A program made the translations under genes and the position numbers. DNA of 64,000 bases from positions 20,708,001-20,772,000 of the forward strand of contig OX597838.1 of assembly GCA_951406725.2 (NCBI GenBank). The letters are read 5' to 3'. Shown in pieces: positions 21,588 through 26,381 of the stretch; position 1 is the first letter of the stretch, and each line of letters begins with the position of its first letter. This DNA comes from Octopus vulgaris (Eukaryota). The notes under the pieces are model-generated. The model was not told where the DNA came from and made no database searches. It saw only the letters and a program-made list of their open reading frames with translations.

Positions 21588-22559
21588 CTGGACAAGAGAA
21601 AAATCAACGTAAGAAAGTAGCTATTTTATATTAGTAAATGTCAAGTAGAGTTGTGTGTCTTGCTTAAGGACTTCAGCAAGTAAAGCGTTGTTTTGCTTGA
21701 AGTCTTTAGCAAGTAGAGGTATGTGGCTTGGTATTTAGCCTTTTAGCATTGAGACCAGCCATATTCAGCCAAGGTGGAGGCGTGTTTCTTAATGGTTAGG
21801 ATGTCAGCATCATGATCGTAAGATTGTAGTTTCGATTCCTGGACTGGGCGATGCGTTGTGTTCTTGAGCAAAACACTTCATTTCACGTTGCTCCAGTCCA
21901 CTCAGCTGGCAAAAATGAGTAACGCTGCGATGGACTGGCATCCCATCCAGCTGGGGAACATATACGCCATTGAAACCGTGAAAACAGGGCCATGAGCCTG
22001 GCTAGGCTTTAAAAGGGCGCATTTATTATTTTTTTTTATATTTATATTCAGCCAAACTATTTCATCTGTTTCATGTTCAAACCAGCCAGACCTAGCCTCT
22101 TATGCGAAACCTCAGTGTTATTCCAAAACTAAATGATCACATCAAAATCTCAAGGCTACACAATAATGCAGGATTAATTCAAAACAAAGTGAATAAATAA
22201 GCGCTACATTTGACAGTAATCTGAATGCTAAAGGGTTAGGTCAGGTTTCATTCATGAGAGGGTTCAAAATATCTCATGAGTTCAAGACAAAAGGGGAGAC
22301 ACATGGACATATTCCATCTAACTCTAGCATAGCTGCTCAATATAGGAAAGTCTTTGCTGGTCACTGCTATCATGCTGAACAATAGGCCATATTAGATCTC
22401 TCTTGGAGGCCTCAGCACTAATTGAGGATGAAGACCCCTTAACTACATAGATGTTACTAATAGAGACTAACAACATGAAGTTCAGGCTCTACTAAAGCTA
22501 ATAGAAATTGCTTTTGTGGTGTGGTGAAATGCTTCTGTTGCAGCCACTTGAAGAATGCT

Positions 22560-22930
22560 TTTAGCAAGTGGAGTTGTGTGTCTTGGCCAAGGTCTTTAGT
22601 GAGTGGAGCTGTGTGTCTTGGCCAAGGTCTTTAGTGAGTGGAGTTGTGTCTTGGCCAAGGTCTTTAGTGAGTGGAGCTGTGTGTCTTGGCCAAGGTCTTT
22701 AGTGAGTGGAGTTGTGTGTCTTGGCCAAGGTCTTTAGTGAGTGGAGTTGTGTGTCTTGGCCAAGGTCTTTAGTGAGTGGAGTTGTGTGTCTTGGCCAAGG
22801 TCTTTAGTGAGTGGAGCTGTGTGTCTTGGCCAAGGTCTTTAGTGAGTGGAGTTGTGTGTTTTGGTTAAGATCATTAGAGAGTGGAGTTTTGTGTTTTGGT
22901 TAAGGTCTTCAGAGAGTGAAGTTGTGTTGG
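22560..22930. repeat. 35-bp minisatellite GTGAGTGGAGYTGTGTGTCTTGGCCAAGGTCTTTA
   Basis: About 10 tandem copies with a 35-nt period in an enolase intron. Confidence 0.9.
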
Positions 22931-23013
22931 CTAATTGTAATAGATTGATTAATTAAAACAGAGATAGTTAGTGGTCAAAACTGCTAACTAAAAATAAAAG
23001 TTAATTTATTTAC

Positions 23014-23103: not shown

Positions 23104-23280
23104 CTGGAAAATATCATACAACATACAATAGGTTAGTGAGTGGGGAGAGGTGGAGGGATGGATGTCAGTAAATAAAGGTGAGGAGTATGGAGCGAGAGAG
23201 AGAGAGAGGATAAGACAGAGAAAAAGAGAAAGGGGTGAAGAAAACAAGAAAACAACAAAATGGCTAGAAAAAGTAGTTAC

Positions 23281-23422
23281 CGGTTGGGAGAATCATGAAC
23301 TCTTGCATGGCCAGTTTATTACCAGCGTGGCTACCACCATTGATGACGTTAAAGGCAGGGACTGGAAGAATAACTTCTTTGTTACCAGCCAAATCAGCAA
23401 TATGGCGGTACAGTGGAACACC
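23281..23422 (-). CDS. ENO: Enolase exon (142 nt)
   Basis: [47 protein letters not shown]; AG and GTAACT boundaries. Confidence 0.97.
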
Positions 23423-23619
23423 CTGAAAATACAAATATATTCAGTCTATATATATTTATATATATATATATATATATATTACGGAGATGTACTCGCATAG
23501 CAAGTAATTTGATCTGAGATCGTGTGCTGAAACGAAAACAATTGCAGCGTGGAAGGTGTTTATAAGCCATTTAAGAAACACACAAAAGCCGTTCGATTCA
23601 CTTCAACATTTAAGTTTAA

Positions 23620-23669
23620 TTTGTCAAAATATTTTCGTCGCTAAAATCCGCGACCTGTTCACTGACAAA
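23620..23669 (-). ncRNA. Minimal type I hammerhead ribozyme, G3-C8 variant
   Basis: Minus strand TTTGTCA-GTGAACA-G-GTCGC ggatttta GCGAC-GAAA-ATAT-TT-TGACAAA: 7-bp stem I, 5-bp stem II, palindromic stem III AATATT. Confidence 0.65.
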
Positions 23670-23685
23670 GTCCGTGCTGCATCAC

Positions 23686-23727
<42 letters not shown>

Positions 23728-24199
23728 TATAATAAGGGTGAGAGAATTATATATCTTTTACTTGTTTTGGTCATTAGACTGTGGCCATGCTGGGGCACTG
23801 CCTTGAAGAACTTTTAGCTGAATGAATCAATCCAAGGATTTATTTTACTGAAGCTTGGTACTTATTCTATTGGTCTCATTTGCTGAACCACTGAGTTATG
23901 GGGATCAAAACAGCAACACCAGTTGACAAGGCTTCAGTTTCCGTCTACCAAATCCACTCACAAGGCTCCGGTCAGCCCAAGGCGATAAATATACTATTAA
24001 ATTAGTATCTAATTCTCTCACCCTTATTAATTAATTATAATTATGCTGCATTTATTTCTAAATGCTGTATTTGTTTTCCGTGTGAGTTTGGCGCGCTGTT
24101 GGTTGGGGCATTTGAATTATAACGTCCGATGTAAAATCAATTGAACCGCACGCGTATTTATCGTTATGGTAAAATCTGGCGTGTGATTGAGTGGATTTC

Positions 24200-24299
24200 A
24201 TCCAGATAGTCTTGGCTGAAGAGCTACAAATGGATTACTGTAAGTAATATTACATTTAATTCATTAATAGCGAAACAATTGTCCCAAAATAATCTGTAT
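24200..24299 (+). ncRNA. Type I hammerhead ribozyme, canonical core, copy 1
   Basis: TTGG-CTGAAGA-GCTA...TAGC-GAAA-CAATTG-TC-CCAA with a GUC cleavage triplet (cut after 24283). Extended stem I (ATCCAGATAGTCTTGG/CCAAAATAATCTGTAT) and long stem II (AATGGATTA/TAATTCATT, TGTAA/TTACA). Confidence 0.85.
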
Positions 24300-24732
24300 T
24301 TTTGTTATTTTTTATTTGCCCTGTCCGTGTGAGCTAACAGTCGTACTGGCTTTCATGGGAAACATGTATTTTCGTGGTTGAAACATTCTGGATTAACTGG
24401 TGCTAGAGTGATCAATATAGTGACCACTCTCTTATATTTATTTTGTGAAAATATTATAATATGTTATAAAATATTATAATAATCCAGGTTTCTCGTAGCA
24501 CTAGGCCACTTGGTGTGGAATAAATATACTATTAAATTAGTATCTAATTCTCTCACCCTTATTAATTAATTATAATTATGCTGCATTTATTTCTAAATGC
24601 TGTATTTGTTTTCCGTGTGAGTTTGGCGCGCTGTTGGTTGGGGCATTTGAATTATAACGTCCGATGTAATCAATTGAACCGCACGCGTATTTATCGTTAT
24701 GGTAAAATCTGGCGTGTGATTGAGTGGATTTC

Positions 24733-24832
24733 ATCCAGATAGTCTTGGCTGAAGAGCTACAAATGGATTACTGTAAGTAATATTACATTTAATTCATTAA
24801 TAGCGAAACAATTGTCCCAAAATAATCTGTAT
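24733..24832 (+). ncRNA. Type I hammerhead ribozyme, canonical core, copy 2
   Basis: Identical to copy 1, offset 533 nt; predicted cut after 24816. Confidence 0.85.
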
Positions 24833-24971
24833 TTTTGTTATTTTTTATTTGCCCTGTCCGTGTGAGCTAACAGTCGTACTGGCTTTCATGGGAAACATGT
24901 ATTTTCGTGGTTGAAACATTCTGGATTAACTGGTGCTAGAGTGATCAATATAGTGACCACTCTCTTATATT

Positions 24972-25019
<48 letters not shown>

Positions 25020-25370
25020 ATCTTTTACTTGTTTTGGTCATTAGACTGTGGCCATGCTGGGGCACTGCCTTGAAGAACTTTTAGCTGAATGAATCAATCC
25101 AAGGATTTATTTTACTGAAGCTTGGTACTTATTCTATTGGTCTCATTTGCTGAACCACTGAGTTATGGGGATCAAAACAGCAACACCAGTTGACAAGGCT
25201 TCAGTTTCCGTCTACCAAATCCACTCACAAGGCTCCGGTCAGCCCAAGGCGATAAAAACCTTGCCTGAGGTGCCACATAGTGAGACTGAACTCAGAACCA
25301 TGTGGTTGGGAAGCACACCTCTTACCACACAGCCACATCTGCATCTACACACACACACACAAATTGTGTA

Positions 25371-25420
<50 letters not shown>

Positions 25421-26311
25421 ATCTTGTTTACTATCTACTTTTCCATGCTCACATATATTGGGTGGAATTTCTCAAGGAAAATTTTCTAAGGCCAGATGCC
25501 CTTCCTGTCACCAAGCTTCACCTGTTTCGAAGTAAGCGGTAATATTTCACTATAGTCAGACAGGTTTCCACAGAAGATTGGAAACAAATGCGAAACTGGT
25601 GCAGGAAGCAGCCATGAACTCACATTATTTGTCAGGTCTTTGCAGTCACAGCATATCTCCAGAGATTTGGAGATGTGATCCAAATCACATCTGATCATTT
25701 AATGTCTATGTTGGCATAGGCTGAAGTCTAACACAATGATATACAACTACATTATCGCATAGCCTAGTGTCTGGTTTGGCATGGTTTCTTTTGTTGGATG
25801 TTTCAATTCCTAGACCGGGTGGTGCATTGTGTTCTTGAGCAAAATACTTCATCTCGTGTTGCTCTACAATCACTGACATCTAATGTGTGGTATACATTGC
25901 ACCTGTTCAGACAATGTTGATTTGATGAAGAGAGTGAGCTAATGTGTAGCACAAACATTTGATCGCTATAAGTCGTTTGGTAAAAGTTGAACACTCATAT
26001 ATTGTCTTTGACAAGAGAGCCCGTCATATTTTAACCAATGGACAGAGAATATCAATTATCTATCAAGTTGCTTTGTCAATTAGTAAAAGGAAAAAAAAAT
26101 GGCAACTTGAGTATTAAGTAACATTTATTACATTTCTTCACAAATGTTTGAACTATTCTCAAATGCCAGATAATGTGGTTGCTACATAAATGCTTTTGAT
26201 TGTAGGAATGTCAACCGTGTCAAAGTTGATTCAGGACTAAACAACAATCCAATTTTTGTAATAAATAAAATATAAAAATGAAGGCTAAATGAAGTAGAGA
26301 AAAATTCATAC

Positions 26312-26381
26312 TTTTATTTTCAGTTCCATCCAGACTAAGCAAAAATTCATCAACAGCAGTTTGATCTTTCTCGTCCATATG
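26312..26381 (-). CDS. ENO: Enolase exon (70 nt)
   Basis: HMDEKDQTAVDEFLLSLDGTENK; AG and GTATGA boundaries. Confidence 0.94.

Follow-up and report, generated by a model that had tools for sequence, protein, structure and literature searches.

The locus and its host gene

The window, by which we mean the whole 64,000-nucleotide stretch of Octopus vulgaris DNA that was analysed, carries on its minus strand an enolase gene, confirmed by spliced joints and by one exon whose translation is identical to named Octopus enolases. Between two of its exons lies a plus-strand array of 1.86 tandem copies of a non-coding unit of 533–535 nt, which belongs to a family with two fixed 3′ ends, here called long and short. 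The parts of the locus, in window positions, are as follows.

23273..23423, minus strand: host enolase exon, residues ~126–174, lying 3′ of the insertion when read in the direction of the gene
23688..23724, no strand: (TA)n tract, left half of the target site
23718..23749, minus strand: short inverted arm, whose end is the long (“tailed”) one of the family; 23731–23749 equal unit positions 26–44, an exact 19-nt match
23748..23989, plus strand: 242-nt exact copy of the right flank (25015–25256), between the arms
23985..24519, plus strand: unit 1, a complete 535-nt repeat unit, non-coding
24200..24299, plus strand: predicted type I hammerhead 1, with stem I (24200–24215 with 24284–24299), core (24216–24222), long stem II (24223–24271), GAAA, palindromic stem III (24275–24282) and a predicted cut after 24283
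24284..24816, plus strand: cut-to-cut monomer of 533 nt, a prediction only
24445..24574, plus strand: the “tail”, ~128 nt between the two fixed family ends (unit position 460 and position 55 of the next copy)
24520..24977, plus strand: unit 2, 458 nt long and finishing at unit position 460, the short family end
24733..24832, plus strand: predicted type I hammerhead 2, identical to hammerhead 1, with a predicted cut after 24816
24978..25021, no strand: (TA)n tract, right half of the target site
25015..25256, plus strand: right flank, source of the duplicated 242 nt and head of a common SINE-like repeat
26313..26381, minus strand: host enolase exon, residues 81–104, lying 5′ of the insertion when read in the direction of the gene

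The initial annotation described two near-identical direct repeats of 460 nt. Their near-identity is borne out, as 458 of 460 positions match between 23985–24444 and 24520–24977 and the sole difference is a 2-nt indel, but their extent is not: the 75-nt spacer belongs to the unit, so that the array consists of 535 + 458 nt of tandem unit. The insertion also reaches further left, to ~23718, through the short inverted arm and the 242-nt flank copy, which is joined to the unit via a 5-nt microhomology at 23985–23989. With (TA)n at both sides, the locus thus has a two-ended design in which the long-end arm is stunted. As the annotation had stated, the unit holds no ATG-started open reading frame of 60 aa, and the longest stop-to-stop frame wholly inside the track is 63 aa; the 24001–26000 tile has a G+C content of 36%, so that the array is low in G+C and non-coding, as retrozymes are.

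The array had further been placed inside an enolase intron and called antisense to that gene. There are indeed minus-strand exons on both sides, but the “intron” spans the place of a missing exon. Residues 105–125 of enolase, encoded by a 65-nt exon, are absent from 23424–26312, and two degenerate patterns match nowhere in the genome; the exon is present in the O. sinensis and Argonauta proteins, and its loss would shift the reading frame. An O. vulgaris enolase entry in the database, of 269 aa, starts after this gap and may not be independent. Either the assembly is defective here or the allele carries a deletion, for which the insertion may be responsible. The orientation stands: the ribozyme lies on the strand antisense to enolase and is therefore unable to cleave the pre-mRNA of that gene. 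The neighbouring enolase intron contains a 35-nt minisatellite of ~10–13 copies at 22507–22959.

The hammerhead motif

Both copies of the unit carry CTGAAGA (at 24216 and 24749), a 49-nt stem II region, GAAA, the palindrome ACAATTGT and GTC, with the two GTC triplets ending at 24283 and 24816, 533 nt apart, exactly where the initial annotation had predicted cleavage. Its account of a canonical hammerhead in each repeat, with a stem I of ~16 bp and three mismatches, a long stem II and a tiny palindromic stem III, likewise agrees with a direct reading of the sequence, in which stem I has 16 positions and 3 mismatches. A descriptor combining the core, stems I and II and the palindromic stem III matched the 64-kb window at just these two places and had no match in 30 local shuffles. 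Judged by sequence, the motif has what defines a type I hammerhead, namely the core CUGANGA / GAAA / NUH and stems I, II and III with stem I open. The Rfam search that the annotation had proposed as a check nevertheless returned no hammerhead match, either at the gathering score or at E values up to 10; the long stem II is a likely reason. Two DapZ matches from Rfam (E 9.8) were rejected as chance.

Conservation of the pairing was assessed in an alignment of 24 sequences from just three related subfamilies and therefore few independent events. Across these sequences, stem III and the core are invariant, the latter apart from N7, and 94.5% of 696 cells in the stems are paired, compared with 24–40% in slid controls. 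Six pairs show two-sided changes, five in stem I and one in stem II. Of five covariation measures, three beat all 500 shuffles and two do not (55/500 and 476/500). The alignment thus suggests that the hammerhead stems have been kept by compensatory changes across the three subfamilies, with two of the five measures not rising above shuffles.

In predictions of folding energy, a lone hammerhead fold (−19.5 kcal/mol) lies 1.9 kcal/mol above a competing fold (−21.4), and the window haplotype has a C–A mismatch at the fifth pair of stem I. Stem III, unfavorable as a hairpin (+2.4 kcal/mol), is predicted to be stable as an intermolecular duplex of two copies (−6.4 kcal/mol). Such sharing of stem III between two copies is the dimer arrangement described in PMC4209133. 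The predicted 533-nt monomer has a circular fold of −142.7 kcal/mol, with a z-score of −5.4 relative to 40 dinucleotide shuffles. The hammerhead in every unit is predicted to cut itself. The published hammerheads of Penelope-like elements (PLEs) are reported to cleave poorly in vitro (PMC4209133), and among nine Xenopus retrozyme dimers, eight did not cleave and one was active (bioRxiv 10.64898/2026.07.22.740005).

A dispersed family of retrozymes

A DNA search of the octopus genome with the unit gave 819 candidates, the best 40 of which were scored and yielded 244 matches; identity among the 150 matches listed is 96–100%. A ribozyme pattern covering the subfamily of the window (A) and its sister (B) has 821 exact matches genome-wide, and its reversed control has none, which answers the copy-number question raised by the annotation: the unit is multi-copy. 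Subfamily B is ~77% and the older subfamily C ~70% identical to A, and both are collinear with the unit and non-coding. We examined 60 loci of A, 10 of B and 30 of C, the A loci being the top DNA matches and most of the pattern clusters on contig 1, a sample biased to young, long copies.

Hundreds of units that are 93–100% identical are dispersed through the genome in tandem and inverted arrays of up to 12.6 units per arm. Together with insertion ends of Penelope type, this supports the view that the element is a young, non-autonomous ribozyme retroelement. The arrangement is that of retrozymes, which form dispersed multi-copy families and occur as at least two consecutive units, as does the dimer in the window. 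The neighborhood of the cut site matches one of two common forms in 253 of 257 cases. Because the haplotype in the window is the same as that of another locus (L195), its insertion is recent. We are highly confident that the family belongs to the animal non-LTR retrozymes and behaves as a non-autonomous Penelope element. The retrozyme class itself is already known, and the present family extends it to cephalopods; we found no report of cephalopod retrozymes in the literature, and ribozymes, hammerheads and retrozymes go unmentioned in the main text of an octopus repeat annotation from 2026 (PMC13282606). The genome has many other hammerhead families in which a long stem II is combined with a palindromic stem III (ACGATCGT, ACACATGT and others), e.g., at L038, L039 and L060.

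Insertion ends, arms and target sites

On the ribozyme strand, the 5′ ends of the arms are scattered, and the 3′ ends lie at unit position ~55 (the long end) or ~460 (the short end), 128 nt apart round the unit; a few are shifted (e.g., in L011 and L183). Ends were called arm by arm, since an end-motif regular expression run over whole loci gave false short/short calls from background. Two-armed, head-to-head insertions make up 41 of the 60 A loci, and every one of the 41 pairs a long end with a short end. The remaining 19 A loci are one-armed, nine with the long end and ten with the short end, the window locus with its hidden mini-arm being among the latter. The same pairing is seen in subfamily B at all six loci where both ends are defined (one end is undefined at a seventh) and in subfamily C at five of seven, the exceptions being L146 (short/short) and L133 (long/long).

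Each of the two family ends is preceded by a hairpin and then by CTTAT and an A/T run. In predicted folds, the two ends are 2–41 steps apart, a distance that varies. A (TA)4 or longer tract lies beside 94 of 100 family 3′ ends, compared with 57 of 609 background tiles. Most arm junctions have overlaps of 0–6 nt, and clear short target duplications are rare. A copied flank like that of the window occurs at a second locus, L112, where it measures 105 nt. Two insertions lie outside (TA)n, L168 and L179, the latter with a 13-nt target duplication.

PLEs are marked by an inverted arm that is truncated and by a tail at one of the ends (PMC8557442, PMC3846280), and in vitro the tail equals the distance between two RT start sites, with both strands being extended (PMC11167929). 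What characterizes EN+ PLEs is largely present here: a 5′-truncated inverted arm in head-to-head arrangement, a tail on one arm and an AT-rich or microsatellite target. Their tail length of 30–40 nt is not, as the tail measures 128 nt in A and 103–104 nt in B.

The probable Penelope-like partner

Which element, then, could have moved the unit? A scan for the GIY-YIG family (best 150 of 6,136 candidates scored) and three protein searches revealed at least four young autonomous PLE families in the genome, with intact frames of 775–781 aa, in which Pfam recognizes an RT in four of four and GIY-YIG in three of four. Both ends are readable in 7 of 15 inverted copies of these autonomous elements, and all seven have a tail of 26–37 nt, on one arm only, at (TA)n. 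The unit had no significant match by blastn or nhmmer to 48 PLE-containing loci (38 + 10), which represent the four intact families and several decayed ones.

The link to Penelope RT or GIY-YIG open reading frames that the initial annotation hoped to find by genome search thus failed to appear: none is joined to any copy examined. Its alternative of a Penelope pLTR fares no better, as no RT or GIY-YIG open reading frame lies between the repeats here, where a pLTR–ORF–pLTR arrangement would place it. PLE fragments beside L099 and L112 were considered as a link and rejected as separate insertions, with (TA)n and unrelated DNA in between. Since none of these autonomous families shares detectable sequence with the unit, mobilization by a PLE is deduced from its footprint and not from homology. 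On that footing, the unit was likely mobilized in trans by the RT and GIY-YIG nuclease of a Penelope-like element; the 128-nt tail, far longer than the 26–37 nt of the local autonomous families, counts against this.

The most abundant young autonomous family (noted at L152:4222–4898 and L153) has a 775-aa open reading frame in a 4,271-nt tandem unit, and the hammerhead-like motif in its 3′ region reads CCGAAGA instead of CTGAAGA. Canonical PLEs are described as single-ORF elements. In several autonomous families (L055, L152, L155 and L156), a separate frame of 450–490 aa lies upstream of the RT frame and overlaps it; the one such frame that was scanned has no convincing Pfam match.

One circle or a longer RNA as template

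The length and homogeneity of the arrays bear on the RNA from which they were copied. Of 82 arms, 60 are longer than one unit, the longest reaching 6,736 nt, and 5′ ends are not clearly enriched near the cut, with 8 of 101 falling within positions 290–315 compared with 4.9 expected. Cut linear monomers were therefore not the template. Units of one arm diverge by 0.15%, the two arms of an insertion by 0.17% and different loci by 1.7%. Among 54 loci there are 29 haplotypes, and in 218 of 227 minor-allele cells the variant is shared by every unit of the array. Arrays that are nearly uniform while loci differ imply that new variants pass through a one-unit bottleneck, which is expected if one circle is read over and over. 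The template was thus likely a circular monomer RNA. Circular templates for PLE tandems were proposed, not tested, in PMC4209133, and retrozymes are reported to make both linear and circular RNA (PMC7229834).

One locus, L184, bears on the two arms jointly. In both of its arms, the unit copied second has the same 3-nt change at its cut site, which favors a single RNA shared by both arms, but one of several units, either an uncut linear RNA or a dimer circle. In an in-register comparison of both arms, the result is clean in L184 only and partial in L117, and 67 singletons are unshared. The change at L184:3761–3769 is the reverse complement of a second CAATTG-containing site (unit positions 147–156), which is also the L184 arm junction. 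As the changed letters match its own arm junction, a local templated change is possible.

Proposed mechanism and alternatives

We consider it probable, as a full mechanism, that the locus is a recent retrozyme insertion, moved in trans by a Penelope-like RT and GIY-YIG nuclease from a circular monomer template. A read-through transcript of an array would be cut after each GUC, more efficiently when two motifs share the palindromic stem III, and the released 533-nt monomer would be closed by a host ligase. A Penelope-type protein would then cleave a (TA)n tract on both strands, and the two DNA ends would prime reverse transcription on the ribozyme-sense RNA, one at each of the fixed sites. Each polymerase would run round the template for 0.1 to 12.6 units before the two cDNA ends were joined head to head via microhomology. 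At the window locus, the left arm would have aborted after ~30 nt, switched to the right flank and copied 242 nt of it, and this copied flank would then have been joined to the 993-nt right arm at the 5-nt microhomology.

A bolder version of this mechanism, which we hold tentatively and as somewhat less than an even prospect, is that a Penelope protein dimer sits on one ribozyme-made circle at two fixed hairpin sites 128 nt apart and carries out an obligate, twin-primed rolling-circle retrotransposition that may also have deleted the missing exon of enolase, an essential gene. Two reverse transcriptions, one per strand of the cut (TA)n, would proceed at once, chasing each other round the circle, and the exon could have been lost through priming at two separate (TA)n tracts. 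If this is true, the 41 of 41 pairings and the one-haplotype arrays would be its genomic record, and the 533-nt RNA would provide a ready test substrate.

The circular template has to be weighed against a linear one, and the retrozyme as a whole against three other readings. The same Penelope-type mobilization could have used an uncut linear read-through transcript of an array, with a ribozyme that is weak or protein-helped and no circles involved in the spread. In vitro, an anole PLE inserted mainly from uncut RNA (PMC11167929); the non-cleavable variant of L184 stands in the same register on both arms with normal units around it; and young, homogeneous source arrays would also yield homogeneous daughters. 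Against it, unit-specific mutations are common (125 heterogeneous sites in two-armed loci, with the 67 singletons not shared in register), yet family variants are fixed over whole arrays in 2,263 of 2,276 cells, which requires a repeated one-unit bottleneck. Repeated 5′ truncation would moreover shorten arrays over the generations, and the arms still reach 12.6 units. We regard the uncut linear template as unlikely, though worth keeping in view.

Growth in place, by which single pLTR remnants would have become a minisatellite through unequal crossing-over or DNA rolling circle, is a route discussed for retrozyme tandems (bioRxiv 10.64898/2026.07.22.740005), and concerted evolution can yield homogeneous arrays. 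It predicts neither non-integer arrays, random 5′ truncation and two fixed end points nor inverted second arms that are as similar to the first arm (0.17%) as are units within an arm (0.15%), and we find it very improbable. Even less credence goes to the idea that an autonomous Penelope element was deleted and left the two repeats as its pLTRs: the palindromic-stem-III hammerhead, the inverted arm and the tail are pLTR features (PMC4209133, PMC8557442), but the whole unit is collinear and non-coding in three subfamilies that are 23–30% apart, the PLE coding fragments near L099 and L112 are split from the unit by (TA)n and unrelated DNA, and homology to the four autonomous families is lacking, so that this reading is already largely refuted. 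An assembly error behind the dimer and the 242-nt duplication would fit the microsatellite flanks and the enolase exon missing from the same interval, where local assembly may be faulty. Against it, the locus has the same two-ended design as 41 others, its two units differ by an indel, and the unit–unit joint recurs in four independent read sets; such an error is very improbable, and the family is real whatever happens at the window locus. The circular monomer template, moved by Penelope-type proteins, thus remains our preferred account.

Comparison with known systems

The animal non-LTR retrozymes of coral, mussel and axolotl (PMC7229834) and of vertebrates (bioRxiv 10.64898/2026.07.22.740005) share with the octopus family non-coding, low-GC tandem units with a type I hammerhead, dispersed as dimers to multimers, and a proposed PLE origin; amphibian motifs that depend on dimers have a short palindromic stem III, as does the octopus unit. 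At 533 nt, the octopus monomer exceeds the 170–400 nt of characterized retrozyme RNAs, a descriptive range, and falls within the 51–972 bp of the vertebrate survey in the 2026 preprint. Unlike characterized animal retrozymes, the unit combines a 49-nt stem II region with the lack of an Rfam match. Insertion ends, inverted arms and (TA)n targeting receive no analysis in the passages drawn on here from PMC7229834 and bioRxiv 10.64898/2026.07.22.740005. With the minimal pLTR hammerheads of metazoans (PMC4209133), the octopus motif shares the type I topology, the palindromic stem III, the G10.1–C11.1 pair and predicted dimer activity, but its stems I and II are much longer, and stem II is not preceded by an unpaired base.

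The EN+ PLEs (Penelope/Poseidon, Neptune and Naiad; PMC8557442, PMC3846280, PMC11167929) share partial tandems, the inverted 5′-truncated head-to-head arm, the one-arm tail, microsatellite targets and a hammerhead upstream of two RT start sites. The octopus unit differs in having no open reading frame, a tail of 128 nt (103 in B) against 30–40, no sequence link found to an autonomous family, and a strict one-of-each pairing at 41 of 41 loci, where passages in the EN+ PLE papers say “often” or “optional”. Non-autonomous elements of Chlamys such as MRC1 (PMC8557442) are PLE passengers that likewise form multicopy head-to-tail insertions. The Chlamys elements, however, resemble autonomous partners at their 3′ end, and their clade is said to lack canonical hammerheads (PMC8557442), whereas the octopus unit has a hammerhead and no recognized partner.

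The octopus family bears on how PLEs build their tandem, inverted and tailed insertions and on the role of their hammerheads. Its youth, short length and hundreds of copies allow the ends to be counted, and two regularities, start sites that are never the same in the 41 two-armed cases and the one-unit descent of arrays, make sharp predictions for the existing in vitro Penelope system.

Presence in RNA contigs

Contigs of three sequencing runs (X3, X7 and X10) cover the whole unit and the unit–unit joint; no run that holds the unit is recorded as RNA, and these three are shown to be RNA by their spliced enolase joints. The contigs show neither strand, ends nor circularity, and a 24816–24284 junction in RNA is by itself not diagnostic of a circle, since tandem arrays in genomic DNA have it too. 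Runs with other organism labels contain the unit as well, and one of them (X9) has a 359-nt contig with five substitutions. Low-depth contigs carry A>G changes at 24368, 24395 and 24396, where G occurs in none of 285–290 genomic A-type units; this hints at editing of the ribozyme strand. Similar changes at 24337 and 24345 were dropped as candidates for editing, as they equal alleles of subfamily B or C.

An adjoining second element

An unrelated young element of ~205 nt adjoins the insertion on the minus strand (window positions 23480–23687). From 1,246 candidates, the best 40 were scored, and the full-length matches are 100% identical and lie in (TA)n. Its inverted arms end ~58 nt short, it has a 5′ hairpin, and none of 12 loci extends further 5′. 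The element carries a minimal hammerhead-like motif whose core pair is swapped to G3–C8 and whose predicted stems I and II fold as expected. Natural hammerheads are reported with U3–A8 (PMC4209133, PMC3088659), and G3–C8 is an engineered rescue in PMC11167929.
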